A model generated the notes under the pieces. That model saw only the letters and a program-made list of their open reading frames with translations, was not told where the DNA came from and did not search any database. Shown piece by piece: positions 39,847-58,909 of a stretch of DNA of 64,000 bases. The position numbers were made by a program, and so were the translations under genes. The stretch lies in IMG/VR virus record IMGVR_UViG_3300032249_001192, positions 5,524 to 69,523 of that record, one strand, 5' to 3'. This DNA is from a virus. Within the stretch, counting starts at the first letter, position 1, and each line of letters starts with the position of its first letter.

Positions 39847-40497
39847 TTAAATATTGAAAGAATTTAAGTATTCAAACTGATCTTTGGTTTTTATGTAATG
39901 AAATGAAATATGTTCATGGGGTTTCTGAATACCATAAAATTCTGGTGGTTGAGAGTACACTCCTGGTAAATTTTCATTAATAATACCAGCCTGTCTACCT
40001 ATAAGTCCTATAGCAACATCGGAGTATACTAAACTATTTAGCTCACCTATAGTATATTGATTATGAGCACACAAAGATTTAAGAGAAACCTTATTAAACA
40101 AAATTCCTCCACCTCCAAGAACATAGAATAAGTTTCTATCATTTGGCCAAGTATTGCTTACTTGTCCATATATTCTATTATCATATTTGTTTAATGTTTC
40201 TATGATAGAATCTAAATTATTTACATAAACGAAAACATCGTCACCAATAAAGAAAAACCAATCAAACCTATTTATATGATTATCTAAAGCATAATACATA
40301 GCATAAAAATTTTTATACATACTAGACAGGTAGTCGTCTCTGTCTGTGCAGCAGATGTAGTTGGGCCTGTTATCTATTCTGTCTGTAATATGAAATATGT
40401 TTTGATTTTTTGCCCAAGTGTCATCTATTAGACGACATCTATCTAGGTGTTTATGTGTTGTAAAAGTATAGAATCCACAATTAGTTAATATTTTCAT
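39847..40497 (-). CDS. GT31 Fringe/core-1 beta-1,3-galactosyltransferase-like protein
   Basis: DWFFFIGDDVFVYVNNL, YVLGGGGILF, SDVAIG, ISFHYI parallel the C1GALT1/Fringe motifs DWFLKADDDTY, YMSGGAG, EDxxxG, SFHY. Confidence 0.75.
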   Translation of the reverse strand: MKILTNCGFYTFTTHKHLDRCRLIDDTWAKNQNIFHITDRIDNRPNYICCTDRDDYLSSMYKNFYAMYYALDNHINRFDWFFFIGDDVFVYVNNLDSIIETLNKYDNRIYGQVSNTWPNDRNLFYVLGGGGILFNKVSLKSLCAHNQYTIGELNSLVYSDVAIGLIGRQAGIINENLPGVYSQPPEFYGIQKPHEHISFHYIKTKDQFEYLNSFNI

Positions 40498-41147
40498 ATT
40501 AAAAACTTATAGAATTCTGGGTGTCGAACGTTGTGTTCGTCATAAACGTCTCCAACAAATTCAGTGTCTTCTCTTATGGTAGGAAAAGGTTTTTTGTCAA
40601 AAAACTCGTCGTGAACAACTTTGTCGTCACCTATCAATGGGTAAAGTTTGTTTCCTAAAAATTCATAATCAGTGCCATATTTATCTGTGGCAGTGTAGTT
40701 TTTAAGAAGTTCTTCAATATTGTATTTGTTGTTTTTTCTATACCCCCACATGCCACCCAATATAGGATATCCATGATGAGGATGATCTCTCATTATGTGA
40801 ATAGTTTTATTTTGTTTTAACCAATAGTCAACAGCATATTTTTCTCTCATATTAAGACGACTATCAGTATCTCTGAATATACAAACATCAAACCGAGGAT
40901 CAAAACAAGTTTGAAATCTCCAGAATAGATTAGACCATGAGTCTGATCCGTTCATTGTTTTTATAATCACATGATCAAATTTTTCTAGTTCTATTTTTGT
41001 TTGTTCTGGAACAGATGAGTCGCTTATGAAGAATACGCATTTCCATTCTGGATATATTGTTAAAGCTAATTCTGCGTTTTTAATAGCTCCAGCATTATAT
41101 TTGGGATTATTTCCCCATAAGCTAAAAGCAATACATTTATTAGTCAT
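40494..41147 (-). CDS. Putative glycosyltransferase (GT-A-like)
   Basis: IAFSLWG..PKY..GA, FWRF, FRDTDSRL, HIMRDHPHH...ILGGMWG. Confidence 0.55.
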   Translation of the reverse strand: MTNKCIAFSLWGNNPKYNAGAIKNAELALTIYPEWKCVFFISDSSVPEQTKIELEKFDHVIIKTMNGSDSWSNLFWRFQTCFDPRFDVCIFRDTDSRLNMREKYAVDYWLKQNKTIHIMRDHPHHGYPILGGMWGYRKNNKYNIEELLKNYTATDKYGTDYEFLGNKLYPLIGDDKVVHDEFFDKKPFPTIREDTEFVGDVYDEHNVRHPEFYKFLI

Positions 41148-41754: not shown

Positions 41755-42004
41755 TAGGACATTCTTGATCAGCCCATGCTAATTTATTTAAGAATCTCTT
41801 CTTCTTGCTCAAATAACATCCACACACATTGCATTGCTCTTTACTTGCGTTGAATTCTTGACATGTTTCACATATCTGGTATCTATCCAGTATTTCTTTT
41901 TGTGTGGACTTTGGAAATCCACCATAAATATGAAACCATAAGGACTTAATGAAGATCTGTAGTCTGATTAGGAACATCCTTCTTCCTTTCTTTAATGGCA
42001 ACAA
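41726..42004 (-). CDS. Small Cys-rich zinc-binding protein (DUF6171-like)
   Basis: RYQICETC...CNVCGC...ECPIGKW. Confidence 0.7.
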   Translation of the reverse strand: MLPLKKGRRMFLIRLQIFIKSLWFHIYGGFPKSTQKEILDRYQICETCQEFNASKEQCNVCGCYLSKKKRFLNKLAWADQECPIGKWPKIQR

Positions 42005-42561: not shown

Positions 42562-45237
42562 TCAATTGATATACACTCTGGTTGACCTAGCGCTACTTGC
42601 ACCAGCCACATTTACTGATCTAATAGAAATATCATAATTTTTACCTCTCGTTATTGCGTAGCCGCTATTCCCATAGATAGTATAGTATAAATTTGCATGA
42701 GGAGACGAATAATTATCCCATCCTATTGGGGTGGATCCTTGGTCTTTAGCACCAGCACCAACAAATATTTGACCAGTAATAGAAGGGTCCTCTACTTGTG
42801 TAAAATTAATCAAGTATTGATAAACACCAGTTGTAAACATGTTAGGCCATTGCAGATTCACTATTGTTCCAACAGAATTTGGAAAATTAGATGATGCAAT
42901 TAATGATGGTGGGGCGGATGGTAACTCTGCATACTCGGCATAGAATTGCAATTCATTTCCGTCGCCTCTTGAATTGTTTGGAATAATGCGAATTCTATAA
43001 GGATTACCAATTGTGGATGTGGGAATAATACATTTCCATTTTGAAATACTATAATCAAAACCTATATTAGTAGTAGTTAATGTTGGAATACTAGATTGCC
43101 ACCAGTCTCCATTTGTTGCCAATTGATATTCACAACGGTAAGATACCGGAGCAACATTTTCTCCATAATAGTCTGGCGGAGCTGTCCATAAAACAGTCAG
43201 AGAATTTGAGTTTCTATTAACTGAAACATTCTTAGCATTAATAAGAAATCTATACCTACCAAGGTAGTAAGAATATCCAAATTCAAATGCATTTTGCACA
43301 TTGGTTGCTAAATAATTATACAGATTAAGATTAACTATTGAATTATTATCATTATTAACCGAACCAGGTCTCCCAGCAAAACTATACGGGACTATAGTAA
43401 CAGGCGTACAATAAGGACCAACGTTTCCGTTACTATAAACTGGAGCGATTGATATTGAATACGTTACTCCGCCTTTAAGCATTCTAACTCTATATCCATA
43501 TGATGTTATTGCTTGTAAAACTCCATATTGATTAGCATATGGGTATGGAGGAGGATTAGAATCCCAATATGAAAGACCATTAATTACCCTGTATGAATTG
43601 TTGTTATCCCAATTTATGATATATTCTTGTTTAGATGGATCTGGTTGAATAATATTATTGACTTCTGAAGCGGTAGAACCGTAAGCTCCTCTTGGATCTA
43701 TTGGTCCTCCTGCTATTTTTATTTTCCAAGAAAGAGGATATCCTATTTTAACAATACCTGATGACCAAGATATGTCTATTTCGGCGCTATTATATCGCGT
43801 ATCAGTAACAGATAAACTGCCTAATACTAACCTAACGGACAAATTCGATGCTCTTTGAGCTAGCGTTTCAGTTGGGGTTACTGTTGGTGTTGGTGTTGTT
43901 GTTGGGGTTAATGTTCTTGTTCTTGTTGGGGTAGCTGTTGGAGTTAATGTTCTTGTTATTGTTAGAGTAATTGTTGGGGTGGTTGTTGGGGTTGTGGTTA
44001 TTGTTGGAGTTATTGTTGGAGTAGAAGTTTTTGTTATCGTTGGAGTCAGTGATCTAGTTGGTGTTTGTGTGGCTGTTATGGTTGGTGTTGTTGACGATGT
44101 TATTGTTGGTGATGGCGTCGGAGTTGGAGTTCTGCTAGCGTCTGGTGTTGGAGTAATTGTTGGAGTTCTTGTTGGGGTTACTGTTTTGGTTGAACTGATG
44201 GTAATTGTTGGAGTAACAGATGGTGTAATTGTTGGCGTTTTAGTTGCCGTAATTGATGGAGTAGTAGTTGGAGTATTTGTTCTTGTTGGTGATACCGACG
44301 ATGTTATTGATGGCGTAACTGTTGATGTTGCAGTTATTGTTGGTGTTACCGTTGATGTTGGGGTGACACTTGAGGTTATGGTAAGAGTAGGCGTTACTGT
44401 AATGGTCGGAGTAGTAGTTGGCGTTGGAGTTATAGAGGACGTTACTGTTGGTGTAACGGTTGGTGTTGCTGTTATAGTCGCTGTTGGAGTTGGTGTTTCA
44501 CTTCCGGTAATTGTTATGGTTGGAGTCAACGAAGACGTTGGAGTAATTGACGGCGTTTGTGTTTGCGTGGCTGTAATTGTTGGTGTTTGACTTGGAGTAC
44601 TTGTAATCGTACTTGTTACAGTAGGAGTTATAGTACAAGTTGGTGTTGGTGTTGTTGTACAGGTACTGGTTGCTGTTGGCGTTATTGTCGATGTTGGTGT
44701 GCTAGTATTAGTTAAAGTTATGGTTTGGGTGGGTGTTTGAGTTGGTGTCGATGTTTTTGTTGGTGTTAGTGTTGGTGTTGTGCTAGCACCCGGAGTGGGG
44801 GTCCTTGTGGGTGTAGCTGTTCTAGTAGGTGTTTTACTCCTGGTAATTGTTATTGAAGGAGTTATAGAGGAAGTTACAGTACTAGTTGGAGTTACACTAG
44901 GAGTAGTTGTAATTGTTGAAGTTATGCTAGGAGTAATAGTGGGAGTGGCCGTTATTGATGACGTAATAGTAATGGTGGGAGTAATAGTGGGAGTAATAGT
45001 GATTGTTGTAGTTGGAGTTGGGCTGCGTGTTGGGGTTTTTGTAGGGGTTTTAGTAGGTGTAGGAGTTCTACCTGTACGTGTTGGTGTTCTTGTCGTAGTT
45101 ATCGTTGGAGTTATTGTTTGGGTTTTGGTTGGGGTTCTTGTTGGAGTTGGAGTTTTTGTTGGAGTTCTGGAGGGACCAAGACCAACATCACTCAATGCCT
45201 TTTCACAATTATTACAGTCGTTTGGTGACATAGTCAT
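42562..45237 (-). CDS. Mucin-like Thr/Pro-rich stalk protein with C-terminal FN3-like domains
   Basis: About 430 aa of TPT/TPS repeats, then beta-sandwich segments ([27 protein letters not shown]); no signal peptide. Confidence 0.8.
43861..45180 (-). repeat. Degenerate low-complexity repeat encoding (T/S)PT(x)T units
   Basis: Codon-diverged GTTGGTGT/GTTGGAGT-rich tract on the plus strand. Confidence 0.85.
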
Positions 45238-45429: not shown

Positions 45430-47088
45430 ATGAAATCAACCATAGTTACCGGCATATGGGATTTGGGTAGAGATTCTCTGTCTGATGGCTGGAGCAGATC
45501 ATTTGATCATTATAAAGAAAAATTTGCTGTATTACTTGATTCTTTACAAAATATTCCAACTATAGTTTTTATAGACAAAAAACATGAAGATATAGTATGG
45601 AATCATCGTAATAAAGAAAATACAGTAGTATACCACCATACTGCTAATGATTTTGATAATAATTTTTTCCCTTTCAGAGATAAGGTAGAAAAAATAAGAA
45701 CTAGCGAGCAGTGGTTATGTCAAGCAGGATGGCTCAGAGAAAGCACTCAGGCCAAATTATCTCTCTACAACCCAATGGTTATGAGTAAGATGTTCCTACT
45801 GCACAATGCCAAGGTATTTAATCCATTTAATACTGAATATATGTACTGGCTTGATGGTGGAATATCTAATACTGTTCACCCAGGATACTTTAGCCACGAC
45901 AAAGTCTTAGAAAAAATACAAGATATCACTAAAAAATTTCTATTTGTTTGTTTTCCTTATGAAACAGAATCAGAGATTCATGGATTCGATATAAAGAAGA
46001 TGAAAGAATATGCTAAATCAGAAGAGGTTAGTAGGGTTGCTAGAGGAGGATTTTTTGGTGGACATATTGACTATATAGCTGAGGCTAATAATCTATATTA
46101 TAGTCTATTAAGTGATTCTCTTAATAATGGTCTTATGGGTACTGAAGAAAGTATATTTACCCTAATGACATACTTGCAACCAGAAACCTACCAGCATGAA
46201 ATGATTAATCATGATGGTTTGTTGTCTACATTCTTCGAAAAAGTTAAAAATAATCAAACTATTATAGAAGAAACCGTAAAAAATAATCCTAGAAAAAAAC
46301 ATTCAAACAACGAAACAATATTATACATTAATGCTTTTAATTCTCCAGAACAATTACAAATGGTCTTGGATAGTTTTGAACTACATGATAACTCATTTAT
46401 TACTCAAACAAAAAAGATTCTAATAAACAATAGCACAAAAGAAGATCTCTTCAGTAAGTATGATGCCATTTGCGAAAAATACGGATTTTCAGAGCAGATT
46501 AAAAAAGGAAATTTAGGAGTTTGTCGAGCTAGACAATTTGCTGCTGAACATTTTGCAGACCTTGGTTCTAAATACATGATCTTTTTTGAGGATGACATGT
46601 TGTTAGATTATTCTATATCTAATTGTAATTTTGGTTTTAAAAAATCGACACCTAATTTATTAAGTAGTCTTATTCGTATAATGGACAATGAAGAGTATGA
46701 TTTTTTGAAATTTAGCTTTAGCGAATTTTATGGACATAACGGAGAACAGTGGAGTTGGCATAATGTTCCTTCAGAATTACGGGTAAAATATTTTGGAGAC
46801 GCAAAGAAAAAACCTCTCACCAAGTTTTCTTGCATAAAATCTTATAATGGCATACCTTATGCAGAAGGGGAGATTTACTATTCAAATTGGCCCCATATAA
46901 TAGATCAGGAAGGCAACCAAAAACTATTCTTAGATACTACATGGTCAAATCCTTTTGAACAAACGTGGATGAGTCACATATATACTCTAACAATTAACAA
47001 TAAAGTTAAACCGGCAATATTATTAGCTAGTCCAATAACACATAATAGGGTTCATTTTTATGAAGCGAACGAACGCAAAGAAAACTAA
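45430..47088 (+). CDS. HtrL/YibB-like domain fused to a GT2-like domain
   Basis: TIVTGIWDLGR, YWLDGG, GGFFGG, GTEESIF (HtrL-like); C-terminal FFEDDMLL. Confidence 0.75.
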   Translation: MKSTIVTGIWDLGRDSLSDGWSRSFDHYKEKFAVLLDSLQNIPTIVFIDKKHEDIVWNHRNKENTVVYHHTANDFDNNFFPFRDKVEKIRTSEQWLCQAGWLRESTQAKLSLYNPMVMSKMFLLHNAKVFNPFNTEYMYWLDGGISNTVHPGYFSHDKVLEKIQDITKKFLFVCFPYETESEIHGFDIKKMKEYAKSEEVSRVARGGFFGGHIDYIAEANNLYYSLLSDSLNNGLMGTEESIFTLMTYLQPETYQHEMINHDGLLSTFFEKVKNNQTIIEETVKNNPRKKHSNNETILYINAFNSPEQLQMVLDSFELHDNSFITQTKKILINNSTKEDLFSKYDAICEKYGFSEQIKKGNLGVCRARQFAAEHFADLGSKYMIFFEDDMLLDYSISNCNFGFKKSTPNLLSSLIRIMDNEEYDFLKFSFSEFYGHNGEQWSWHNVPSELRVKYFGDAKKKPLTKFSCIKSYNGIPYAEGEIYYSNWPHIIDQEGNQKLFLDTTWSNPFEQTWMSHIYTLTINNKVKPAILLASPITHNRVHFYEANERKEN

Positions 47089-48376
47089 AGCCAAGACTCA
47101 AACAACTAAAAAGAGTAATAAAGTAGAGACTATTTTTATTCAGATAGCTTCATATCGAGATCCTCAACTCCTTCCAACCTTAAGAGATTTGTTTAGTAAA
47201 GCAAAAAATCCAAGCAATATCACCGTTGGAATATGCTGGCAACATTCTCCAGAGGATACATGGGACGTACTAGCGGAGTTTGAGAACGATCCAAGAATAA
47301 AAGCTATAGACATAGACTATAAAGATAGTCAAGGTGTTTGCTGGGCCAGAAATTTGGTTCAGTCTCTATATGATGGAGAAACATATACTCTACAACTAGA
47401 TAGTCACCACAGATTCGTTCAAGACTGGGATGAAATTCTAATAGATATGCTAAAAGGTTTACAAAAAGATGGATACAATAAACCGTTAATAACAGCATAT
47501 ATACCCAGCTTCGATCCAGACAATGATCCCGCATCTAGAGTTCAAGAGCCTTGGAAAATGAATTTTGACAGATTCATTCCTGAAGGAGCAGTTTTCTTTT
47601 TACCTGCCTCTTTTGATTCTTGGGACGATAAAACCAAACCTCTTCCAGGCAGATTTTATAGTGCTCATTTCGCTTTTAGTGTAGGAGCATTTTGTAAGGA
47701 GGTTCCTCACGATCCTCAGTATTATTTTCATGGTGAAGAAATTAGTATTGCCGCTAGAGCATATACTCATGGGTACGATATATTCCATCCTCATAAGGTT
47801 GTCTGTTGGCATGAATATACCAGGAAAGGAAGAACCAAGCAGTGGGATGATGATAAAAAATGGGGTGACAGGAATAATATCTGTCACCTAAGAAACAGAA
47901 AATTGTTTGAAATGGATGGAGAAAAAAGAGATATAGATTTTGGCCAATATGGTTTTGGCACAGTAAGATCTTTGAGAGATTATGAAAAATATAGTGGATT
48001 ATCATTTGGTAAAAGAGCTATACAAAAAAGAGTACAGGATCATCAAGCACCACCAGATCCAGAAACGTCCTATCTAACCGATGAAGATTTTGATAAAAAA
48101 CTGTTAAGAATATTCAAACACTGCATAGATATTCAATATGGTCAAGTACCAGAAAATGATTATGATTTTTGGGCTGTTGCTTTTAAAGACAAAGAAGGCC
48201 AAGATATATACAGGCAGGACGCAGATAAAGATGAAATATTACGTATTAAAAATGATCCAGATGGATATTGTAAGGTGTGGAGAGAGTTTCAAACAGAAGT
48301 TAGCCCAACAAGCTGGTTGATTTGGCCTCATAGCTTATCAAAAGGATGGGCAGAACCGATTATAGGATATCTGTAA
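47060..48376 (+). CDS. GT60-family polypeptide N-acetylhexosaminyltransferase (Skp1 GlcNAc-T/Gnt1-like)
   Basis: IFIQIASYRDP, GVCWAR, LQLDSHHRFVQDWD (DxH), SAHFAFS, EVPHDP..YFHGEEISIAARAYTHGYD. Confidence 0.88.
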   Translation: MKRTNAKKTKAKTQTTKKSNKVETIFIQIASYRDPQLLPTLRDLFSKAKNPSNITVGICWQHSPEDTWDVLAEFENDPRIKAIDIDYKDSQGVCWARNLVQSLYDGETYTLQLDSHHRFVQDWDEILIDMLKGLQKDGYNKPLITAYIPSFDPDNDPASRVQEPWKMNFDRFIPEGAVFFLPASFDSWDDKTKPLPGRFYSAHFAFSVGAFCKEVPHDPQYYFHGEEISIAARAYTHGYDIFHPHKVVCWHEYTRKGRTKQWDDDKKWGDRNNICHLRNRKLFEMDGEKRDIDFGQYGFGTVRSLRDYEKYSGLSFGKRAIQKRVQDHQAPPDPETSYLTDEDFDKKLLRIFKHCIDIQYGQVPENDYDFWAVAFKDKEGQDIYRQDADKDEILRIKNDPDGYCKVWREFQTEVSPTSWLIWPHSLSKGWAEPIIGYL

Positions 48377-48385
48377 AAACATTTT

Positions 48386-48997
48386 ATGCAAATATTCTCA
48401 AATATTAGTGCTATTGGAGATTCTCATGTTGGTGCTTTTTCACCATACTGTAGATTGTGTACTCTTGGTCCAGTTACCATGTATTCGTTGACAACAGATA
48501 AGCTTAATGAATATATTGTTTATTTACTTGAACGAAAAGAAATAGATATTAATGGCTGGTGGATTTTTTGTACCGGTGAAATAGATATAAGATGCTTATT
48601 GTACAAACAAATAAATGAGTACGGCAGAAAAGAGGACGAGACTATAGAAACATTAGTAGATAATTATATCTCTAGTCTATATAAGCTGAATCACGCAAAG
48701 TTAGCCATATCAACCACAGTACCTCCTGCAAAAACAGAAGGTTTTGAAGTTCAACAAAAACATACCATCAATTCTGACTATCCTTTTAAGGGATCAGATT
48801 CAGAAAGAAACAGATGGTCTAAAAAACTAAATCACTATCTAATAAATAAGTGCATAGAAAAAAACATTACTTATTTAGATATATACTCTCTATTCAAAAA
48901 CAACGAAGGATTTTTAGATCATCAATATATAGACGCAGATATGATACATGTTTCAAAAAATGATAAAATCGTCACACTACTTAATAATTTATACTAG
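48386..48997 (+). CDS. SGNH-hydrolase-like protein
   Basis: IGDSH, GEIDIR, DMIH (DxxH). Confidence 0.7.
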   Translation: MQIFSNISAIGDSHVGAFSPYCRLCTLGPVTMYSLTTDKLNEYIVYLLERKEIDINGWWIFCTGEIDIRCLLYKQINEYGRKEDETIETLVDNYISSLYKLNHAKLAISTTVPPAKTEGFEVQQKHTINSDYPFKGSDSERNRWSKKLNHYLINKCIEKNITYLDIYSLFKNNEGFLDHQYIDADMIHVSKNDKIVTLLNNLY

Positions 48998-49005
48998 GAG
49001 AAACT

Positions 49006-49746: not shown

Positions 49747-50603
49747 TATACATATCACTATGTGCCATGCCAGATAGACTAGAGACTAAAGATAGTTCGT
49801 CTCAGTGTTTATCTTCTTTATTAGAACAAGAAACAACCCATGAATATAAAGTTCTTTTGAATATTCCTTTAAAATTAAGGAACTATGAAAATACAACTAT
49901 ACCACAATGGGTATTGGATTTAGAAGTAGCATATAATGGTAAGCTTATTATTCTTAGAGACGATATAGACTATGGACCAATATCTAATCTATTGTCTCCC
50001 ATTAAGCTAATAAGTATGGATCCAAATGATATTATTATTATTTGCGATGATGATCATATGTACGACCCAAAGATGATTGAATACCATCTTAAAAAGCTGC
50101 AACAATATCCTGACCATCATGCTATTTGTTTTAGAGGGAATCAACCACTAGAACTAAGAACGTGGTATATAGATAACGTTAAATATGGTAAACTCTATAA
50201 TTCGTGTGTTTTATTTCCAACAAGAAATGATATTTATTTAAAATTGCCTGATCATTGGCATAGCGTATCGTATCGTAGAAAGTTTATTCAACAAGATATT
50301 TTTGATCAAGATTTTTTAAATATATCTTGGAATAACGACATTTTAATGGGGTGCTATGCATGGTCTCATGACTTTTATTTTTTATGTGCTAACTACGATC
50401 AAGAGAGTGATTTTAGACCCGTTAACTATGATGGTCGAGGAGCTAATTCTTTCCCTTTAATGAAGATGCTTCCATTTTCTGGAGACAGTGGTTGCAATAG
50501 ATGGAGGAATCAAAATAAGAAACCGGGTGAAGATATATGGGATTTAGAAAAATTTCGACAACTATTTGATAAGGATAAAGGAATAATACAATTATGGAAA
50601 TAA
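49728..50603 (+). CDS. GT-A-fold glycosyltransferase
   Basis: ISLCAMPDR, DYGPI, IIICDDDHMY; paralog of the next gene. Confidence 0.7.
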   Translation: MDKCYMIYISLCAMPDRLETKDSSSQCLSSLLEQETTHEYKVLLNIPLKLRNYENTTIPQWVLDLEVAYNGKLIILRDDIDYGPISNLLSPIKLISMDPNDIIIICDDDHMYDPKMIEYHLKKLQQYPDHHAICFRGNQPLELRTWYIDNVKYGKLYNSCVLFPTRNDIYLKLPDHWHSVSYRRKFIQQDIFDQDFLNISWNNDILMGCYAWSHDFYFLCANYDQESDFRPVNYDGRGANSFPLMKMLPFSGDSGCNRWRNQNKKPGEDIWDLEKFRQLFDKDKGIIQLWK

Positions 50604-51364
50604 TTATATCTCTAACAACTGTACCTAATAGGTTATATGAGCATCACGGTCATTCAGCCACTAGGGCTGCTCTCACCACTTTATTAGAACAGTCATATCC
50701 CTTATATTCTGTTCACCTAAATATTCCTTTAGAATATAGAGGAGAGCAAGTTTCTATACCAGATTGGCTTAATGACTACACAAATAAATACAAACATCTA
50801 AAAGTTTTTTTAACACAAGACTACGGATCAATAACCAAGCTAATACCAACTCTAGAGAGAGTTGAAGATCCAGAAAGTATTATAATACTAGCAGATGATG
50901 ATCTTTACTATATGGATGGATTAATTGCTGCACATATCAATGGAAGACAAAAATACCCAGACTATGCATTAGGTTTCGCTGGCATGGCGGCAATAGATGG
51001 TTCCTGCCACTTTTGTACAACGATACCAAAGGATACTAGAGTTAAAGTTCTAGAAGGATACAAAACTGTATCATACCTAAGAAAATTTTTCGATATTAAT
51101 GAACTCAAAAAAGATTTCGTTGGCAAGTCTTGGAGAGATGACGAAACATTATCGGCTTATATGGGCTATAGGAATATTAAAAAACTAGTACTATCATATG
51201 ATGGAGATACTGACTTTTCTCCTAGAGTAGAGTCCTTTCCGGTAATTGGTCATGTTCCAGCAGAAAGAGGTGGATGTAATTTATTTAGGGACTGCTCTGA
51301 TTCTCAAAACAAGTCAGAACAAAATATACAAGAATTTTTTAAACTTGGTTACTTAGAAAGATAA
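50594..51364 (+). CDS. GT-A-fold glycosyltransferase
   Basis: ISLTTVPNR, DYGSITKLIP, ILADDDLYY, DDETLS. Confidence 0.75.
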   Translation: MEIIISLTTVPNRLYEHHGHSATRAALTTLLEQSYPLYSVHLNIPLEYRGEQVSIPDWLNDYTNKYKHLKVFLTQDYGSITKLIPTLERVEDPESIIILADDDLYYMDGLIAAHINGRQKYPDYALGFAGMAAIDGSCHFCTTIPKDTRVKVLEGYKTVSYLRKFFDINELKKDFVGKSWRDDETLSAYMGYRNIKKLVLSYDGDTDFSPRVESFPVIGHVPAERGGCNLFRDCSDSQNKSEQNIQEFFKLGYLER

Positions 51365-51366
51365 TT

Positions 51367-51747
51367 ATGAAATACTTTTATTGTGTTATTTTAACGGTTG
51401 TTTTATCCCAGAACGTCTGCGCTCAACAGTGGTCTAATCCTGAAAATGCTAATCTTACAAATAGTATGACAAATTTAATGGTTAATTTTGGCATTGCAGG
51501 AATGCAAACGGCACAACCTTCTTTAGCAAATAATACTAATTCATATTTAGATTATCAAAATGGATATTATCAAGAACTACAAAATAGTTTAACTAAAACT
51601 GAAATATATTTTCAAAAAAGACAAACTAATATGTACTACAGAGAACTTGAAGTTATTCAAAAACGAGAACTTAAAGATCTTAAAAAATATAATCAGTTGA
51701 CGATACCAGAACTAAATAGGATTTTTGATAGAGATATCAGAAACTAA
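51367..51747 (+). CDS. Exported hypothetical protein
   Basis: Signal peptide MKYFYCVILTVVLSQNVCA; Q/N/Y-rich helical body. Confidence 0.6.
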   Translation: MKYFYCVILTVVLSQNVCAQQWSNPENANLTNSMTNLMVNFGIAGMQTAQPSLANNTNSYLDYQNGYYQELQNSLTKTEIYFQKRQTNMYYRELEVIQKRELKDLKKYNQLTIPELNRIFDRDIRN

Positions 51748-52679
51748 AATACCGGATTAATAATTCCATATCCTTGGTACTTTCTTATTCCTTTATATCT
51801 AGGATTTTCTAAAGAAATAGCATGTAGTTTAAATACTTCTATATAGTCTTCGTATGTTTTAAGTTGATATTTTTTATGCTTATTATTATAGCTTAATAAT
51901 AAAGAAGCACAACCAACCACAAATGGATTACTCATGCTGGTTCCACTCATACTAGCATATCTATTTCCTGGAACACATCCAATAATATTGTGACCAGGAG
52001 CTAAAAAGTCTAAATCATCTCCACTACAAGTAAATGAAGTACGATTCATATTTTCGTCTATCGCCCCTATAGATATAGTATTTTTATATCTAGCAGGATA
52101 CATTATCTCAGCATTCTCTCCGCTATTTCCAGCAGCGCAAAAAACAACACATCCCTTACCATTAGCATGTGTTATAGCCTCCTCTATAGCTTTTGATGGT
52201 GCGGGTGAACCAAGGCTCATGGTTATAAAATCTACATCTCCGTGATCTGCAGCCCAGTAAATCCCATCTGCAACTGTGTTCATTGATCCTGACCCATCGT
52301 CTCCAAGTGATTTAATCGGAATAATTTTAGTCATAGGAGCAACGCCAACCATACCAAAACCATTATCTGATGCAGCTATTGTAGAAGCAACATGGGTTCC
52401 ATGCCCAGCGCCGTCTATTGGTTCTTTATTTTGGTTAATAAAGTTTTTCCCGGGTAATAAATTATCTACTAAGTCTTTATGAGTTAAATCACATCCTGTG
52501 TCTATAACAGCTACGACCACTCCTTCTCCTTTAGATTCTTTCCATAGATTCGGTATATTAAATTTTGTAAGTTCCCACCCTTTGAATTGTGGATCATTTA
52601 CAGATAGTCCATATACATCTTCTCTGACATATGGTAATAGAGAGATATTGTTTTTCTTTTTAAAAAAACCTCTAGTCAT
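51744..52679 (-). CDS. Subtilisin-like (S8) serine protease
   Basis: VAVIDTG, HGTHVA, AAGN, SGTSMS. Confidence 0.95.
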   Translation of the reverse strand: MTRGFFKKKNNISLLPYVREDVYGLSVNDPQFKGWELTKFNIPNLWKESKGEGVVVAVIDTGCDLTHKDLVDNLLPGKNFINQNKEPIDGAGHGTHVASTIAASDNGFGMVGVAPMTKIIPIKSLGDDGSGSMNTVADGIYWAADHGDVDFITMSLGSPAPSKAIEEAITHANGKGCVVFCAAGNSGENAEIMYPARYKNTISIGAIDENMNRTSFTCSGDDLDFLAPGHNIIGCVPGNRYASMSGTSMSNPFVVGCASLLLSYNNKHKKYQLKTYEDYIEVFKLHAISLENPRYKGIRKYQGYGIINPVF

Positions 52680-52681
52680 GA

Positions 52682-53428
52682 TTACTCCTTAGTTTTTGCT
52701 AATATTTCTGTTATCCATTCAACATGATCGCTAATTCGCGTATGTCCACTTTCTGTACCGTACGTTGATCGTACAGCACCCTTTTCATGTATTACACAAG
52801 AATTAATTCCTGCTATTTTGTTGTCTATAAATAATCCACCACCACTATCCCCACTCCCTATACAAAACTCAAGTTCTGTTCTATTAGATCTAGAAGGAGA
52901 ACATATTAAAAGTCCCCGATCAATTCTATCTACAATATTAGATCCTGCTCTTTTTTTATCGTCAGAAATATTTGCACCAGTTAGAAAAGTTCCGGTAATC
53001 CCATAACCGGAGATAGAGCAAACTTTACCAGTTTCATTAGTTTTTGTATATAGCTCAGGATACCAATCTAATCCAATATTTTCTTCTAAAAAACATATTG
53101 CAATATCGTGATAACCAAATTGATCAGAATTATATTTGGGATGAATAATAATTTTAGCCACTTTTATATTTTTACCATTTATTTCAACAGCACAATCTAT
53201 AATATCTTCTACCATATGGGCAGCAGTTAATACTACTTTATCTTTATGTGCAACTCCAGAACCAAAAAAGGGTTTAGTGTCTGGCATTTTCCCTTTTACT
53301 TTAGAAACATAAACGAACTTGGATCCGTATGAGACATATTTAGAGTCTGGAGTATTAGGGTCTATGGTTCCAGAATAAGCTACAGAACCTATCAAGAATA
53401 CTACTAAAGATAGTAAAAATTGACGCAT
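52682..53428 (-). CDS. Exported trypsin-like (S1) serine protease
   Basis: Signal peptide; LTAAH, DIAI, GDSGGG. Confidence 0.92.
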   Translation of the reverse strand: MRQFLLSLVVFLIGSVAYSGTIDPNTPDSKYVSYGSKFVYVSKVKGKMPDTKPFFGSGVAHKDKVVLTAAHMVEDIIDCAVEINGKNIKVAKIIIHPKYNSDQFGYHDIAICFLEENIGLDWYPELYTKTNETGKVCSISGYGITGTFLTGANISDDKKRAGSNIVDRIDRGLLICSPSRSNRTELEFCIGSGDSGGGLFIDNKIAGINSCVIHEKGAVRSTYGTESGHTRISDHVEWITEILAKTKE

Positions 53429-53735
53429 GGTTTTGCACTTTAAGAGAGTAGGGGCGATTCTTAACCTTATTTAAATACACCGAGCAATCATTAATCACAT
53501 CAACATTCCAACTACTATAATCCATTAAATGGCCAAAAATAAAATGACAATTAGGACATAAAGTAATAAGATTAGTTAAATCCAACTCTCTGCTTGGATT
53601 GACATGAAAAGGCTCTATATGATGTACCTGAATTTTTTTGCATGAACCGCAAGCCATGCAGCAGGGTTGTGATAGTAGGTGTTTTTTTCTTACTGATGTC
53701 CATTCAGGAGATCTGTCGGATAAAATATTCCACAT
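53355..53735 (-). CDS. Small HNH endonuclease
   Basis: CMACG...VHHI...NLITLCPNCH. Confidence 0.85.
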   Translation of the reverse strand: MWNILSDRSPEWTSVRKKHLLSQPCCMACGSCKKIQVHHIEPFHVNPSRELDLTNLITLCPNCHFIFGHLMDYSSWNVDVINDCSVYLNKVKNRPYSLKVQNHASIFTIFSSILDRFCSLFWNHRP

Positions 53736-53750
53736 TTTTTCACTATACTA

Positions 53751-54290
53751 TCAGCTTATTTCCATATAAACACAATAATTTCCAACATTATCAAACCATG
53801 TTCCACTATCCCATATTCCACAATATACATATCCAGAGGATGGGGCAACTATATTTCCTCCCAATCCTATATAAAAAGCATTAGTAGTAGTAAATGGTAT
53901 TGACGGTGAGTTTGTTGCAGATATAACTCCAAATACAGCGTTGTAATTGCCTATAAAAGCATTGGGAGTACCATATAGACCACGAGCATCACTAAGACAA
54001 GAACCAGCAATACAAGAAACACACCCTCTAACAGAGAAACTTATAGTCTGACCCGCTGTCACAAACTGCTGACCAATTCTTTTAAGTGTTGCTCCATCGG
54101 AATAAACTAATGATGTTTCAATGGGTAGGCACGTAATACTTTCGGCACTTATACACATTCCGGTTCGCGTGGGTGTGATTGTTGGTGTGGGTGTAGGTGT
54201 ATTTGTTGTTGTTATCGTAGGAGTCGGAGTAACGCTACTTAATGGTTTTTGAGTAGCTACTGGACAGCAATTAATATTAATAATAGTCAT
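53751..54290 (-). CDS. Thr/Pro linker plus LecA (PA-IL)-like lectin domain
   Basis: TPTPT linker; AGQTISFSVRG...IGLGGNIVAPSSGYVYCGIWD..WFDNVGNYCV resembles the PA-IL fold. Confidence 0.6.
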   Translation of the reverse strand: MTIININCCPVATQKPLSSVTPTPTITTTNTPTPTPTITPTRTGMCISAESITCLPIETSLVYSDGATLKRIGQQFVTAGQTISFSVRGCVSCIAGSCLSDARGLYGTPNAFIGNYNAVFGVISATNSPSIPFTTTNAFYIGLGGNIVAPSSGYVYCGIWDSGTWFDNVGNYCVYMEIS

Positions 54291-54311
54291 AAATAATACT
54301 TTCTTAAATTA

Positions 54312-56771
54312 TTATACAATAGGATTATGCTCAAAAAAGTAAACATCTGAGTCAGCAACAACCCCATTATTAGTTACTCTACACCACAGCTTATAGTAAC
54401 CTCTGCAACTCCTATTAAACCTAATACTATTTGGATCTAATGTATCAATGGAATTAGGTATAGATCGCGTCCAACAAGGAGAAGTAAGCATAATGGGAGA
54501 AGTCGGGGATGAGCAATCTCTATCATAGTATATGGCCCACCATTCATATATTGTATTTCCCTGTGGGTTCTGAATAGTAGAGCTTACACTAAACACATCA
54601 CCATCTCTAGTAATATCAGAATTTAATGGATCAGTTATGATGCAATCACTGAGACATCGTGGGAATTGATCACTCCGTGGGTGAAACTGATTACCGTTAC
54701 ATCCATTAGTGGTCGTATTGTTTTTTGTAAAAGATATCGTGGTTGGCGGACAAATAAATGACCCCGCAACAACAATATCGTTAGGTATACATACCGCTAA
54801 TACAATATTATTGGATGGATTTTTTAAGACTACTCTTCCAATACCATTATGACACCTTTCCCCCGCACAAACCAGCTTTAATTCTGTTAAACTACTTGTT
54901 ATTATATGATTATTTATAGTAAAAACACCCTCTCTATATCCTCCGTCACCAGCATTATTTAAATTAGCTTGTCCTATTAAAATGTTATCTATATAGAAAT
55001 CAAAAATAGCTCTATTACAACTATGTCCGCCTCCGCAATTAACTGGATCATATGAGACTATTGCGGTATAGCCATACAGATCAATACCTGCAGCTAAACA
55101 TACTTCTGGTTGTGGTGGGGGTGGGGGTGGCGGCACCGCAGGTATTATTATATCTCTAATATTAGATCTTGAACAACAAGTTCTTCCCCCAATACGTAAC
55201 TGTATATTAGATGCTCTATTCCCTCCTGGAGATATTATAGAGTTTGGTATGTATAGTTTGAGAATTTTGTGATCACAACCAACAACTGCTGCTCTAGTAG
55301 GATTCGGAGTTTTTGTTACTGTGGGTGTTAGCGTTATTGTAGATGTTACCGTAGGAGTAGCCGTAACAGTTGGAGTTGCTGTTGACGTAGTTTTAATGGT
55401 GGGAGTAATCGTTAAAGTTGGAGTTGGTGTTGGAGTTGATGTTTGCGTTGCTGTGACGGTTATTGTTGGTGTTGGTGTGGGGGTAGAAAATAGACCATCT
55501 CCCACACTATTTGCACTAACACAGGTTGGATCACTATCGCTTTGAGTAGCATACTTCCAATATCCAGCATTGGTTCCTCCACCCTTATAATATGCTGCTT
55601 TATACCATTCGTTTTCCGTTGGAATGTGGTATTTTGCGCCAGGATTCCTAGCCACAGCATCTCCGGTAGTACTGCCATTTAAAGTATAGGCTCCGTCTTC
55701 AGTAGTGCTGCTGTTTTGAGACCCAGTTGGTTTTCCGTTATGTAGCCAATTACAATATCTTGCACAGTCAAACCAGCTTACATATATTACCGGCTTGTTT
55801 CCGTAATTAGTTTTTACTGAGTAAGTGTAGCTTCCACTAGCTCCTGATCTATTGATCGCCGACCCCTGAATCGAATTACTCGCCATATTGACATTGTAAA
55901 GAGCATACGAGTCAGTTGCGGCAACAGCATTCAAAAATTCAACATATTCACTATTAGTAACAAGATATTTTCCCACGGCGTAGCTGTAACCAACACTGCC
56001 TCTTCCAACTCTTCCTCCAGTATCAGGAGAGTTGTTAACATCACCCACAGTCACAAAGTTAGAAAGGACTAAAGGATTAAGTATGGAGAAGGAACTGGCG
56101 ATACGAAAACCGATGATATTGATCACTTCCGACGTGGTGGAGGCGGGTAGGCCGAGGGAGGGCGACGCCAAGTAGAATGCAGCAGCATCGCCCCAATAGC
56201 CGCCCCGCAACTCGCGAGCTGAATCATTCCACTCATAGACTTGCCCAATTTGATCATAAGTACCATATGCACTAGGTCCACCATTAGTTCCAACAGAGGT
56301 GACATTGCCATTTTTACCATCCCAATCAGCACAATAATTAAAATTAGCAGAGTTAGATCCCGGACACAATGAGTTAAATACTAATCTGTTATTTCCTCCC
56401 ATATATCCATGGTAATAACAGTAATAGCTTAATTCTGGTGGTTGTGCTCCTACTCCATTAACAGTAATTGTTACATTACCATAGTAAAAGTCATATGACA
56501 CTCCACCAACTGTTTTTGTTAGTTTATTATTAACGTCTCCAGAATATGATATAAATGATTCATAGCCTGAGTTTAAAATTGCAATAGGATGAGCAGAGGG
56601 GACTCCTGTTAAAGTATATGTACCTATTTGATATCCTAGTTTATGATCAAGATTATTAGGATCAAAACCCGGACCCTCTGCAAAAGTAAAGTTGTAATTT
56701 CCTTCAACAGCGGATACTGCTGTATTATTTCTCATACATCTAATTATCATGGTATAATATCTCCAAAACAT
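54312..56771 (-). CDS. Modular adhesin-like protein: cupredoxin-like, circularly permuted FGE-sulfatase (CLec) domain, Thr/Pro linker, Cys-rich domains
   Basis: HP...YYCYYHGYMGG; FGE motifs GQVYEW, RGG.W, IGFR, GKYLVTN.EY, PV.YVSWFD, PTENEWYKAAY; TPT tract; polyproline stretch. Confidence 0.8.
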   Translation of the reverse strand: MFWRYYTMIIRCMRNNTAVSAVEGNYNFTFAEGPGFDPNNLDHKLGYQIGTYTLTGVPSAHPIAILNSGYESFISYSGDVNNKLTKTVGGVSYDFYYGNVTITVNGVGAQPPELSYYCYYHGYMGGNNRLVFNSLCPGSNSANFNYCADWDGKNGNVTSVGTNGGPSAYGTYDQIGQVYEWNDSARELRGGYWGDAAAFYLASPSLGLPASTTSEVINIIGFRIASSFSILNPLVLSNFVTVGDVNNSPDTGGRVGRGSVGYSYAVGKYLVTNSEYVEFLNAVAATDSYALYNVNMASNSIQGSAINRSGASGSYTYSVKTNYGNKPVIYVSWFDCARYCNWLHNGKPTGSQNSSTTEDGAYTLNGSTTGDAVARNPGAKYHIPTENEWYKAAYYKGGGTNAGYWKYATQSDSDPTCVSANSVGDGLFSTPTPTPTITVTATQTSTPTPTPTLTITPTIKTTSTATPTVTATPTVTSTITLTPTVTKTPNPTRAAVVGCDHKILKLYIPNSIISPGGNRASNIQLRIGGRTCCSRSNIRDIIIPAVPPPPPPPQPEVCLAAGIDLYGYTAIVSYDPVNCGGGHSCNRAIFDFYIDNILIGQANLNNAGDGGYREGVFTINNHIITSSLTELKLVCAGERCHNGIGRVVLKNPSNNIVLAVCIPNDIVVAGSFICPPTTISFTKNNTTTNGCNGNQFHPRSDQFPRCLSDCIITDPLNSDITRDGDVFSVSSTIQNPQGNTIYEWWAIYYDRDCSSPTSPIMLTSPCWTRSIPNSIDTLDPNSIRFNRSCRGYYKLWCRVTNNGVVADSDVYFFEHNPIV

Positions 56772-58909
56772 TTGTTGTGTACTGAATAAGAATAATATCC
56801 AGGATTTGCTGGGTCACAATCAACGGCAGAACTTGGTAGTGCTGCCCAGGTGTTGCTATTATCTAAAGAGTATTCAATATCACAACAACATAGTTCGTTT
56901 TTCTCTACTTGTAATTCTACTATAATACCACCATCAACTAATGAGCCGTCTATGAATCCATCACAAACAATTATTGCTGGACAGTATGATGGAGATGGTG
57001 TTATTGTGGGGGTTGGCGTTAGTGTAGGAGTAGGAGTTGGTGTTACACATATAGATTCTAAACAATATATTCCAGAGAATACTGTCCATGAACTAGAGAT
57101 CGGTGAAGGAGAAGTAGATATTGAATCGTTATATGCTGAAGAACAATCGGTAAAATCAATGGCTCTTATTCTGAAAGTTAATGGTCTACCAGCAGTATTT
57201 ATACAGGTTCCGTCTCCTCTTATAATATCGCTACTAGTTAAAGTATACGTATAAGAAGTAATGCTTGTATTAAAAATACAAATATTGTCTACTATGTTGC
57301 CAGGTAAGCCGCTACTACCGCGACTATCTAATGTTTGTATTTGATAACCGGTCATACATGCTTGGTTACGACCATTAGTACCCTTTAACCAATCTAATAT
57401 CACTGTTGCTTCTGAACCAGATATACCAACAGATGAGCATGAAGCAGATATATTATTGACTGTTGGCGCAGCAAGTGCACAATTGGGTGTTGGTGTAGGA
57501 GTTGGACTTTGACTAGGAGAAGGGGTACAACAATTACAGTTGCTTGTATTACCTTCAAATGTCCATATTGGAGGAATATTACACTGACATGCAGTAGATA
57601 TTCCAGTTATAGTTAATCCTCCAACACAAGAGATATTAGCATTTGCTGTCCATTTATTAGCACATGATCCAGCACCAGTATATGCTACACTAGGATCACA
57701 AGTAACAGACATAAAGTATGTGTCACCACAAGCCAATGTTCCGCTACTAGTCCAATAATTAGGCATGACCTTCGTAAATAATAAGTCTAAAGATATGGTT
57801 CTGGTCACATTACTACAATTTAATACAAATGTAGTCAAACCATTCCATTCACAGCAGGATTGTTTACTTGGTGAGGGGGTTAATGTTGGAGATGCTGTTA
57901 ATGATGGAGTAGGAGTTAGTGTTCTTGTAACTGTTTGAGTTGGTGTTCTTGTTGGAGTAGGAGTACAGCAAGTACAATTAGTAAAATCGCCAATGAAACT
58001 CCAAATAGGAGGAGCATTACATTGACATGCTTCTTTTATTCCGGTAATTATTAAACCAGTAACACAGGATATTGTCAATGAGGAAGTCCATTTATTAACG
58101 CAAGAGCTGAATCCTGTGTATCTAACAGTTGGATCGCAAGTGATAGTAGCACTAAACGTATCCCCACATAATAAAGTCCCACTAGCCTGCCATCTATTTG
58201 CTGCTGTTTTGGTATAAGTTACTGGAATAACTAAATTACCACAAGAAGCATCAAATTCTAAATATGTATTACCATCCCATTCACAACAGGTAACTGTAGA
58301 TGGACTTGGAGTATTTGTTGGAGTAGCAGTAATTGTGATAGAAGGAGTAATAGAAGGTGTTACTGTGGCAGTAGCAGATCTTGTAACAGTGATTGTTGGA
58401 GTTTGACTTACTGTGATACTTGGTGTTAGCGTAGGTGTTTGCGAAGGTGTTCTTGTTTGTGTATTAGTTTGAGTAATACTAGGAGTTAGTGTAGGGGTCG
58501 ATGTAGCCGTTTGACTATTAGTGGGGGTTGCAGTTGGTGTTCTTGTATTAGTGGGGGTGTTTGTTCTAGTTGTTGTTGTGCTTGGGGTTACAGTAGGTGT
58601 TACTGTTCTTGTTACTGTTCTAGTTGGTGTTCTTGTTGGAGTAACTGTTCTAGTAACAGTAGTGCTTGGAGTTATTGTCGGCGTAAGGGTTGGTGTGGGT
58701 GTTGGTGTTTTTTTAGGGGTTTTAGTTGGTGTTGGGGTTTTAGTGGGTGTCTTAGTAGGCGTTTGACTAAGAGAATTTCTATCTATAAAAGGACACCCAT
58801 CATCCGACCTTATCCTTGGGGGTTTTGGAGTTTCTGTTGGTGTTCTGGTTGGTGTTGGAGATGGCGGAAGTATTTTCCGCTCATTTTGTCCGTTCATTCT
58901 GTTTGTCAT
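56747..58909 (-). CDS. Mucin-like Thr/Pro-rich protein with two 12-Cys repeats and an FN3-like domain
   Basis: Several TPT tracts separated by duplicated CCEW...CGDT...CDP...CQC...CxCC domains; LTFRIRAID. Confidence 0.8.
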   Translation of the reverse strand: MTNRMNGQNERKILPPSPTPTRTPTETPKPPRIRSDDGCPFIDRNSLSQTPTKTPTKTPTPTKTPKKTPTPTPTLTPTITPSTTVTRTVTPTRTPTRTVTRTVTPTVTPSTTTTRTNTPTNTRTPTATPTNSQTATSTPTLTPSITQTNTQTRTPSQTPTLTPSITVSQTPTITVTRSATATVTPSITPSITITATPTNTPSPSTVTCCEWDGNTYLEFDASCGNLVIPVTYTKTAANRWQASGTLLCGDTFSATITCDPTVRYTGFSSCVNKWTSSLTISCVTGLIITGIKEACQCNAPPIWSFIGDFTNCTCCTPTPTRTPTQTVTRTLTPTPSLTASPTLTPSPSKQSCCEWNGLTTFVLNCSNVTRTISLDLLFTKVMPNYWTSSGTLACGDTYFMSVTCDPSVAYTGAGSCANKWTANANISCVGGLTITGISTACQCNIPPIWTFEGNTSNCNCCTPSPSQSPTPTPTPNCALAAPTVNNISASCSSVGISGSEATVILDWLKGTNGRNQACMTGYQIQTLDSRGSSGLPGNIVDNICIFNTSITSYTYTLTSSDIIRGDGTCINTAGRPLTFRIRAIDFTDCSSAYNDSISTSPSPISSSWTVFSGIYCLESICVTPTPTPTLTPTPTITPSPSYCPAIIVCDGFIDGSLVDGGIIVELQVEKNELCCCDIEYSLDNSNTWAALPSSAVDCDPANPGYYSYSVHNKCFGDIIP

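Follow-up and report, generated by a model that had tools for sequence, protein, structure and literature searches.

Glycosylation of phage particles has been recognised only recently and in few phages. Phages that glycosylate their own structural proteins are already known among the mycobacteriophages, whose glycosyltransferases (GTs) reportedly modify the C-terminal ends of capsid and tail-tube subunits (a finding attributed to Freeman et al. in 2023), and giant viruses are likewise known for such activity. In Gram-positive bacteria, serine-rich-repeat adhesins receive O-linked N-acetylglucosamine (GlcNAc) from GtfA/B in the cytoplasm and are then extended stepwise by cluster-encoded GTs, some of them bifunctional, which gives glycans that vary between lineages. 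Family GT60 has so far been characterised only in protists: the enzyme of Trypanosoma cruzi makes GlcNAc-alpha-1-O-Thr on mucin-like proteins (PMC9472816). Replacement of the GT-A DxD motif by DxH is a hallmark of families GT27 and GT60 (PMC7185993). Here we describe a GT60 gene in a stretch of viral DNA of 64,000 nucleotides (the window, to which all positions below refer unless a relative is named), which corresponds to bases 5524–69523 of the 69.5-kb linear IMG/VR virus record IMGVR_UViG_3300032249_001192. This gene forms a conserved pair with a gene for a two-domain GT (HtrL-GT), lies among genes for proteins with long threonine/proline (Thr/Pro) tracts, and belongs to a group that is associated with such tracts in several phage lineages. 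We propose with moderate confidence that, in the cytoplasm, the pair O-glycosylates Thr/Pro stalks in the fibre or adhesin proteins of the phage. In a keyword search of the open-access literature, no paper connected GT60 or Thr/Pro tracts with glycosylation in phages.

The GT60 gene and its conserved partner

CheckV rates the source record as about 50% complete. Because most of the window aligns, at 85–93% nucleotide identity, to a complete relative of 243,821 base pairs with direct terminal repeats (G001), we assign it to a freshwater-type jumbo phage, of which it is a fragment. Its genes are of tailed-phage type and include those for a DnaB-type helicase, a RecA-like protein, PhoH and a class II ribonucleotide reductase, as well as ClpP, a sigma-70 region-4 protein, RuvB and an actin-like protein. 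No tRNA genes were found in the 64 kb, and the isolate-phage collection holds no near-identical DNA.

The 438-amino acid (aa) product of the GT60 gene (47060–48376, plus strand) scores 260.2 bits on the PF11397 profile (cut-off 21; E 5e-77), the match falling into two parts at profile positions 1–44 and 96–350; it also matches phrog_24687 at E 1e-172. The initial annotation, made from the letters alone, had named a GT60-type enzyme at this position, and the profile search agrees. The DxH motif is D114-S-H116, and D114 and H116 are invariant in 23/23 aligned relatives, down to 24% identity. An AlphaFold model of the protein (mean predicted local distance difference test 88.7, predicted template modelling score 0.83) has polypeptide N-acetylgalactosaminyltransferases (ppGalNAc-Ts) as its nearest solved structures: after VIA re-alignment the top 29 Protein Data Bank (PDB) entries are all ppGalNAc-Ts (Z 18.6–21.5, root-mean-square deviation 3.4–4.1 Å over 269–283 residues), other GT-A families reach Z 16.1 at best, and the top Foldseek matches are nearly all ppGalNAc-Ts (E 3e-10 to 1e-7). 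The kinship with mucin-initiating ppGalNAc-Ts that had been put forward is therefore recovered at the level of structure. A sequence search of the PDB gave 0 hits for the GT60 protein and for profile A1, and three insignificant ones (E 0.028–0.21) for profile A2. The ppGalNAc-T matches leave a beta-rich C-terminal part (residues ~350–438) unaccounted for. In a library of viral structures, the nearest neighbours of the model are phage 'GlcNAc' transferases, followed by Megaviridae and Pandoravirus proteins. By profile, motif and predicted fold alike, the product is assigned to GT60/PF11397.

Genes of this kind are very common in metagenomes. Among 8000 metagenomic candidates scored, at least 7422 are relatives at E <= 1e-5, and 118 of 120 pattern-matched IMG/VR stretches encode a GT60 relative. 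Homologues in the isolate-phage collection are confined to 4 of 50,697 records: XacN1 and Xoo-sp13, which are jumbo phages of Xanthomonas, and CM1 and RAS14 from Stenotrophomonas.

The gene upstream (45430–47088, plus strand) ends 29 nt inside the start of the GT60 gene, both here and in close relatives, and encodes the 552-aa HtrL-GT. Residues 3–255 match HtrL_YibB (PF09612) with 53.3 bits against a cut-off of 24.1, and the model (mean predicted local distance difference test 87.3) contains two GT-A domains. The N-terminal domain resembles GT6 enzymes (Z 13.2–13.6) and the C-terminal domain B4GALNT1, POMGnT1 and GnT-I (Z 14.1–15.4); E387-D388-D389, in the C-terminal half, is invariant. This protein had been described as an HtrL+GT2 fusion: the HtrL part stands, while the C-terminal domain is of GT-A type and is not Pfam GT2. 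Foldseek matches of the whole chain include LH3, LARGE1, K4CP, COLGALT1 and PmHS2 (E 8e-11 to 1e-6, with a low TM score of ~0.25), and Mimivirus R699 is also among the structural matches. Two GT-A domains in a single chain are the arrangement found in bifunctional polymerases of the LARGE1/K4CP/PmHS2 type. The C-terminal half further gives a faint, non-significant match to the TET-associated GT family (E 0.015).

The two genes are kept together. In 80 IMG/VR loci, each comprising 10 kb on either side of a GT60 gene, an HtrL-GT gene is found in 74, and it is present in 5/5 GT60-positive complete genomes tested and in 0/5 GT60-negative relatives. Because of these counts we take GT60 plus HtrL-GT as the predicted core of the system and the remaining enzymes as lineage-specific; in the same 80 loci, relatives of the other cassette enzymes and of the Fringe-like protein described below are kept far less often (GT-A paralogues in 14, the methyltransferase-like protein in 7, the SGNH-like protein in 5, the Fringe-like protein in 5). 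The conserved partner of GT60 is thus HtrL-GT, which the initial annotation had listed without singling it out, and not GT31.

Thr/Pro-rich proteins and their linkage to GT60

Exactly four open reading frames (ORFs) of the window pass a Thr/Pro filter (at least 70% T+P+S, 20% P and 25% T over 30 aa). All four are minus-strand ORFs, and they lie on both sides of a cassette (45430–51747) that is on the plus strand amid minus-strand genes. Four proteins with long TPT/TPS tracts around an inverted cassette had been reported, and their genes are confirmed in place. Thr/Pro protein 1 (891 aa, 42562–45237) has a stalk at residues ~24–466 followed by FN3/Ig-like repeats; in 60-aa blocks, its residues 1–480 contain 33–47% Thr and 12–20% Pro. 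Thr/Pro protein 2 (179 aa, 53751–54290) consists of an N-terminal Thr/Pro tract and a Cys-rich domain and matches phrog_15511 (E 2.5e-6). Thr/Pro protein 3 (819 aa, 54312–56771) has an FGE-sulfatase (C-type-lectin-like) head, a Thr/Pro linker at residues 430–493 and a Cys-rich C-terminal part, and Thr/Pro protein 4 (720 aa, 56747–58909) has a Thr/Pro stalk and two copies of a Cys-rich domain between Thr/Pro linkers, an internal duplication that can be read from the translation (residues ~206–315 and ~351–462). The tracts of proteins 1–4 measure 328, 39, 52 and 96 aa; they are imperfect short-period repeats, with no recent tandem duplications. Lectin and FN3 heads had been predicted for these proteins, and both are supported, the former by the FGE-sulfatase domain of protein 3 (E 1.6e-16) and the latter by an fn3 match of protein 1 that falls under the cut-off (E 1.2e-4), together with protein-atlas leads from its C-terminal part to FN3 and tail-tip J Ig-like clusters (score 0.93–0.94).

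A (TP)n repeat has an antisense image, (GV)n. Because the Thr/Pro frame runs on into ordinary, non-repeat domains and the antisense (GV)n ORFs do not extend past the edges of the repeats, the Thr/Pro reading is the coding frame. A hydropathy scan of the GTs and the four Thr/Pro proteins found no N-terminal hydrophobic segment in any of them, in agreement with the cytoplasmic setting, free of signal peptides, that the initial annotation had assumed.

These four proteins are candidate substrates, as had been proposed, and they are not the sole candidates, since complete relatives encode more, some of them in the tail/fibre module. The structural module of G001 runs on the plus strand from the terminase and portal genes at 230–235 kb across the terminal repeat to ~68 kb, and its tail/fibre part contains giant ORFs of 6454 aa (G001 positions 13704–33065), 2137 aa (53285–59695) and 2660 aa (59702–67681); the two giant ORFs that were scanned gave no PHROG match. 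The same module holds two Thr/Pro proteins, of 1248 and 516 aa. The 516-aa protein shares the FGE-sulfatase head of Thr/Pro protein 3 (40% identity, E 1e-57), and in both a Thr/Pro tract follows. The window and G001 differ by a rearrangement where the 819- and 720-aa proteins are encoded, and G001 lacks the 891-aa gene.

In the 80 loci, a Thr/Pro ORF lies within 10 kb of the GT60 gene in 46. After loci with GT60 genes at least 95% identical were collapsed (80 loci to 61 clusters), the count is 38/61, with a Thr/Pro ORF within 2 kb in 23/61 and within 150 bp in 12/61. The first kilobase from GT60 has 1.34 Thr/Pro ORFs per 10 kb, and the density declines to 0.28 at 8–10 kb; genome-wide, G001 has 8 in 243.8 kb, or ~0.33 per 10 kb. 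Whole records rated at least 90% complete were also searched with a TPT-codon pattern (one mismatch allowed), with the reversed pattern as a control: all nine GT60-positive records have TPT-codon runs (6 to 73 each, versus 0–1 in the control), as does one of four GT60-negative records (G010, with 40 versus 3 in the control), giving a Fisher p of 0.014, uncorrected for kinship.

The association is also seen when loci are selected by the tract. A scan of IMG/VR for exact (TP)5T codon runs found at least 128 stretches, 80 of which were listed as loci; 50 loci from contigs of at least 20 kb, with giant-virus bins dropped, provided 45 records to search, and 42 loci selected with a collagen-like codon pattern from contigs of the same minimum length provided 34 control records. 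PF11397 is carried by 9/45 (TP)5T records and by 0/34 controls (Fisher p 0.004). A Thr/Pro ORF was confirmed in six of the nine, and in two (G032, G042) the strand was unchecked. The ninth, G045, was rejected as a Thr/Pro case, the repeat reading (GV)n on the coding strand, and dropping it gives 8/45 (p 0.008). The (GV)n runs of G045, the antisense codon image of (TP)n, lie in a 740-aa fibre-like protein (locus L443, 10332–12554, minus strand).

The gene neighbourhoods in other lineages point the same way. GT60 homologues with 38–62% identity are found among tail-fibre-like, minor-tail, tail-fibre-assembly and virion-structural genes, beside Thr/Pro ORFs, and in loci L443, L446 and L448 the GT60 gene stands among tail-fibre, minor-tail, portal and virion-structural genes; the divergent GT60 of G045 (29% identity) lies between portal and virion-structural genes, beside its (GV)n fibre-like ORF. 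By these three loci and by the fibre module of G001, GT60 genes are tied to structural-protein genes, as is characteristic of phage virion-protein glycosylation systems. The isolate XacN1 carries a GT60 homologue (ORF334, 48% identity) and 68 TPT-codon runs (versus 1 in the reversed control); the genes that contain the runs carry the annotation of hypothetical protein or predicted ORF. Its virions are reported to contain 'at least two glycoproteins', which its describers suggest are made by the phage's own transferases (PMC5852040).

Several lineages, and bacteria too, have a Thr/Pro ORF immediately next to GT60, and in many cases the two share a strand. The bacterial scan covered one genome per species and found 97 GT60 relatives, of which 80 loci were kept; in high-GC loci the Thr/Pro scan is noisy (wrong-frame stop-to-stop ORFs pass the filter), and only cases read by eye are used here. 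Full-length bacterial relatives are on contigs of metagenome-assembled genomes (MAGs) of Saprospiraceae, Gemmatimonadaceae and others, and these contigs are probably phage DNA binned with the host; relatives that consist of the catalytic domain only are in real chromosomes. In Noviherbaspirillum sp. ST9 (locus L518, 1601–11560, plus strand), genes for a 1308-aa ABC transporter and an HlyD-like protein are followed by one for a 966-aa protein with ~70 ETPAPT repeats, which is directly upstream of a GT60-methyltransferase fusion gene on the same strand. This operon-like row looks like a type I secretion substrate that would be glycosylated before export. Thr/Pro repeat proteins are encoded 0.1–2.6 kb from the GT60 relative in a further four bacterial or MAG loci (L531, L463, L480 and L513). 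Six contigs binned with Saprospiraceae/Lewinellaceae MAGs (L454, L455, L457, L459, L460 and L461) carry full-length GT60 genes with 53–61% identity, and such binning may point to the hosts of these phage clades. The Thr/Pro-like protein beside GT60 in L454 has a signal-like N-terminus.

Taken together, gene order and gene content argue that the genetic link of GT60 to Thr/Pro tracts is real and shows in the statistics, across several phage lineages and in one bacterium or more. The coupling is loose, not strict. The initial annotation had suggested checking whether GT60 and TPT-rich genes co-occur across related phages: the association is found both around GT60 genes (38/61) and among tract-selected records (9/45 versus 0/34), and the strict coupling is not.

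Accompanying genes, proposed pathway and alternatives

Downstream of the GT60 gene, the cassette continues with four genes on the plus strand. The first (48386–48997) encodes a 203-aa SGNH/GDSL-like protein whose Lipase_GDSL match (E 0.0056, 17.3 bits) is below the cut-off of 23.6; the translation shows GDS towards the N-terminus and DxxH towards the C-terminus, and the protein is possibly a glycan O-acyl tailoring enzyme. The second (49006–49746) encodes a 246-aa FkbM-like methyltransferase candidate, which matches Methyltransf_21 (PF05050) at E 4e-4 over residues 112–160 only and with 21.0 bits against a cut-off of 22.7, short of family membership. The last two are the GT-A paralogues that had been noticed in the cassette, and their relationship holds up (30% identity, E 7e-33): a 291-aa protein (49728–50603) matches Glycos_transf_2 (E 2.9e-5, 24.5 bits versus 23.3), and a 256-aa protein (50594–51364), without a Pfam match of its own, is recognised by its paralogy with the first. 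A carbamoyltransferase gene adjoins GT60 in locus L447 and in XacN1.

Left of the cassette, a minus-strand gene (39847–40497) encodes a 216-aa Fringe/GT31-like GT with 21.4 bits against a cut-off of 21.0 for Fringe (PF02434; E 1.8e-4) and 18.5 bits for Galactosyl_T, under the cut-off of 23; its nearest atlas clusters are Fringe-like and viral (score 0.98, as a lead only). The gene had been cast as a core-1-like extender. This is not supported by its distribution, as it occurs in 5/80 GT60 loci and here lies in a stretch without alignment to G001; its membership in the GT60 system is uncertain, and the extender role is conjecture.

Between the cassette and the right-hand Thr/Pro genes are a small protein with a signal-like N-terminus (51367–51747, plus strand) and an S8 subtilase and a trypsin-like protease (51744–53428, minus strand), the latter with a signal-peptide-like N-terminus; these proteases recur in 47/80 and 45/80 GT60 loci. 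An HNH endonuclease ORF (53355–53735, minus strand) shares 74 nt with the start of the trypsin-like gene; it lies between this gene and the one for Thr/Pro protein 2 and has a relative in 40/80 GT60 loci. Beyond Thr/Pro protein 4, adjoining RuvB, a gene for a 333-aa actin-fold protein (58913–59914, minus strand) matches Volactin (PF25216) over its full length (E 1.4e-65, 222 bits versus a cut-off of 35), and a relative is present in 35/80 GT60 loci. Volactin is an archaeal actin, so that its presence in a jumbo phage may be noteworthy.

The window contains 12 GT genes in total and two variable sugar islands, with DegT aminotransferase, GNAT and methyltransferase genes. The first island (12409–22051, minus strand; 27–30% GC versus ~35%) encodes five sugar enzymes: a GT61-methyltransferase fusion, a GT2/GT7C protein, a GT4, a GT47 exostosin-like protein and an RgpF-like protein. 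Where the window has this low-GC GT island (11.5–21.1 kb), G001 instead has 21 kb of unrelated sequence, so that it looks like a swappable glycan island. The second cluster (32916–39202, minus strand) comprises genes for a GT4, a GMP-reductase-like protein, a GT2, a DegT aminotransferase, an O-methyltransferase and a GNAT, a set that points to a modified amino sugar as the product.

In the pathway that we propose, the cytoplasm of an infected cell would be the site of glycosylation, ahead of particle assembly or release. GT60, a GT-A enzyme predicted to be retaining and to use its DxH motif as a metal site, would place a first N-acetylhexosamine (HexNAc) on Thr; the sugar is probably GlcNAc, from uridine diphosphate (UDP)-GlcNAc. 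The two domains of HtrL-GT would then add the next sugars, and lineage-specific enzymes would vary the glycan: here the two GT-A paralogues, the SGNH-like protein and the methyltransferase-like protein, and elsewhere a carbamoyltransferase. The genes of G001 include those for a GlmS-like enzyme and for two nucleotide-sugar epimerases, which fits a demand for UDP-HexNAc. Glycosylated tracts, if present in the virion, might serve as stiff, protease-resistant spacers or might alter surface recognition; the display on the virion, rigidity, protease resistance, camouflage and 'glycocalyx' that had been envisaged are conjecture.

Several observations weigh against this proposal. Many proteins have Thr/Pro linkers that are not glycosylated, and glycosylation in this phage is predicted from genes alone. 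The Thr/Pro genes beside the cassette are on the minus strand among replication genes, outside the main structural module. There is no Thr/Pro ORF within 10 kb in 23/61 dereplicated GT60 loci, nor in any of 16 low-GC cyanobacterial loci (Trichodesmium, Okeania, Dapis and relatives) whose GT60 consists of the catalytic domain only, and in G004 the TPT runs are, among the matches listed, at least 57 kb from GT60. Conversely, G010 (rated 100% complete, linear) and G012 (84%) have Thr/Pro tracts and neither GT60 nor HtrL-GT, and 36/45 (TP)5T records, mostly small phages and proviruses, lack PF11397, including 5/6 rated at least 90% complete. All of these counts are phylogenetically non-independent, and CheckV may misjudge how complete linear contigs are. 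The XacN1 glycoproteins are not assigned to genes in the text of PMC5852040.

Some of these observations would be expected if GT60 glycosylated another protein (capsid or tail tube, as in mycobacteriophages, a host protein or a Skp1-like hydroxyproline) and the Thr/Pro tracts were plain flexible linkers, a possibility that we regard as unlikely. The loci without a Thr/Pro ORF, the cyanobacterial set included, and the tracts that G010 and G012 keep without either enzyme speak for it, and the family does include the hydroxyproline-directed Skp1 GlcNAc-transferase. On the other hand, Thr/Pro genes recur next to GT60 in several lineages and in bacteria, and the one Thr-directed GT60 that has been characterised modifies mucin-like proteins rich in Thr. 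The hydroxyproline route was set aside: the prolyl-hydroxylase-type profile PF13640 is above cut-off in 0/5 complete GT60-positive genomes. One of the five, G005, has a sub-threshold 2-oxoglutarate-Fe(II) oxygenase match (26.4 bits versus 27) ~4 kb from GT60 (L451, 210051–210275).

That the cassette acts on host envelope glycans (by remodelling of lipopolysaccharide (LPS) or capsule, superinfection exclusion or receptor masking) or builds a free polysaccharide, with the Thr/Pro genes as accidental neighbours in variable regions, seems to us rather improbable. The number of GTs in the window and its two sugar islands would suit such a function, the islands differ between close relatives as expected of surface-glycan genes, HtrL_YibB is named after a gene of the LPS-core cluster of Escherichia coli, and the C-terminal domain of HtrL-GT resembles the wall-teichoic-acid enzymes TarP and RmlT. 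Yet the 64 kb of the window contain no polytopic membrane protein and nothing like a flippase, polymerase or initiating phosphoglycosyltransferase, and the GT60 model is nearest to polypeptide-modifying enzymes, not to polysaccharide synthases. Nor would accidental proximity account for the placement of GT60 among tail-fibre and structural genes in other lineages or for the enrichment of PF11397 in Thr/Pro-selected records (9/45 versus 0/34).

A more elaborate version of our own proposal, in which GT60 primes Thr and HtrL-GT acts as a LARGE1-like or chondroitin-polymerase-like co-polymerase, would give repeating disaccharide chains and hence long glycan brushes, a glycocalyx, on the phage particle or on a secreted adhesin, through a widespread cytoplasmic pathway of mucin or proteoglycan type common to jumbo phages and some free-living bacteria such as Noviherbaspirillum; we consider it quite doubtful.

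Finally, that these GTs modify phage DNA bases (glycosylated hydroxymethyl- or hydroxy-pyrimidines) for restriction evasion is very improbable, for beyond the faint TET-associated match of HtrL-GT the evidence runs against it: the route was set aside when no thymidylate-synthase-family gene (deoxycytidine monophosphate hydroxymethylase type) was found in G001 by a search that matched 10/14 control genomes, the folds here are GT-A and nearest ppGalNAc-Ts whereas BshA and sucrose-phosphate synthase are GT-B-fold enzymes, and the Thr/Pro-gene association would be left unexplained. DNA-glycosylating phage GTs are themselves well known, and those tabulated in PMC13326640 were matched there to known GTs such as BshA and sucrose-phosphate synthase.

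Comparison with known glycosylation systems

If the link between GT60 and O-glycosylation of Thr/Pro stalks is true, prokaryotic GT60 enzymes would gain a function, the long Thr/Pro tracts of many large phage proteins would be explained, and accounts of host recognition, of particle stability and of recognition by antibodies would have to allow for a glycan layer. A further gain would be a simple cytoplasmic route to mucin-like glycoproteins in bacteria.

Several described systems resemble this one in part. In the mycobacteriophages, the enzymes are reportedly of other GT families, whereas here the candidate acceptors are long mucin-like tracts and the putative initiator is a GT60. The serine-rich-repeat system differs in its GT-B initiator pair (GT4), in repeats rich in Ser and not in Thr/Pro, in its accessory Sec export and in not being known as phage-borne. 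Giant viruses (chloroviruses and mimiviruses) have their own cytoplasmic glycosylation machinery, and PF11397-like proteins occur in Megaviridae and Pandoravirus; their hosts are eukaryotes, and their acceptors are the capsid protein or fibrils, with other linkages.

The closest isolates are XacN1, Xoo-sp13, CM1 and RAS14, whose GT60 homologues have 45–49% identity over 93–94% of the protein. XacN1 shares with our loci many TPT-codon runs and a carbamoyltransferase beside GT60 (as in L447), and has reported virion glycoproteins (PMC5852040). In contrast, this group is a distant clade with larger genomes, and the text of that description never links the glycoproteins to GT60 or to Thr/Pro tracts.

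Among cellular systems, the protist GT60 enzymes (those of Dictyostelium, and TcOGNT1 of T. cruzi) have PF11397 and the DxH motif in common with the phage enzyme. They act in the Golgi or on Skp1 hydroxyproline, whereas the phage GT60 has no membrane anchor and would act in the bacterial cytoplasm; it also differs in its extra beta-rich C-terminal domain (~350–438) and in its pairing with the HtrL-GT fusion. TcOGNT1 transfers GlcNAc to Thr of mucin-like, Thr-rich proteins, and further transferases then extend this sugar (PMC9472816); the phage enzyme is proposed to work alike.

The mucin system of the ppGalNAc-Ts (GT27) provides the closest solved fold, a DxH site and Pro/Thr/Ser-rich acceptor domains, for which the Thr/Pro tracts are the candidate counterparts here. 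It belongs to another CAZy family and to the Golgi, and the phage enzyme has no recognised ricin-type lectin domain. Because the initiator is a GT60 and not a GT27, there is no Golgi setting and the GT31 step is not conserved, the phage system is not a member of the animal mucin-type O-glycosylation pathway, but it may work alike.

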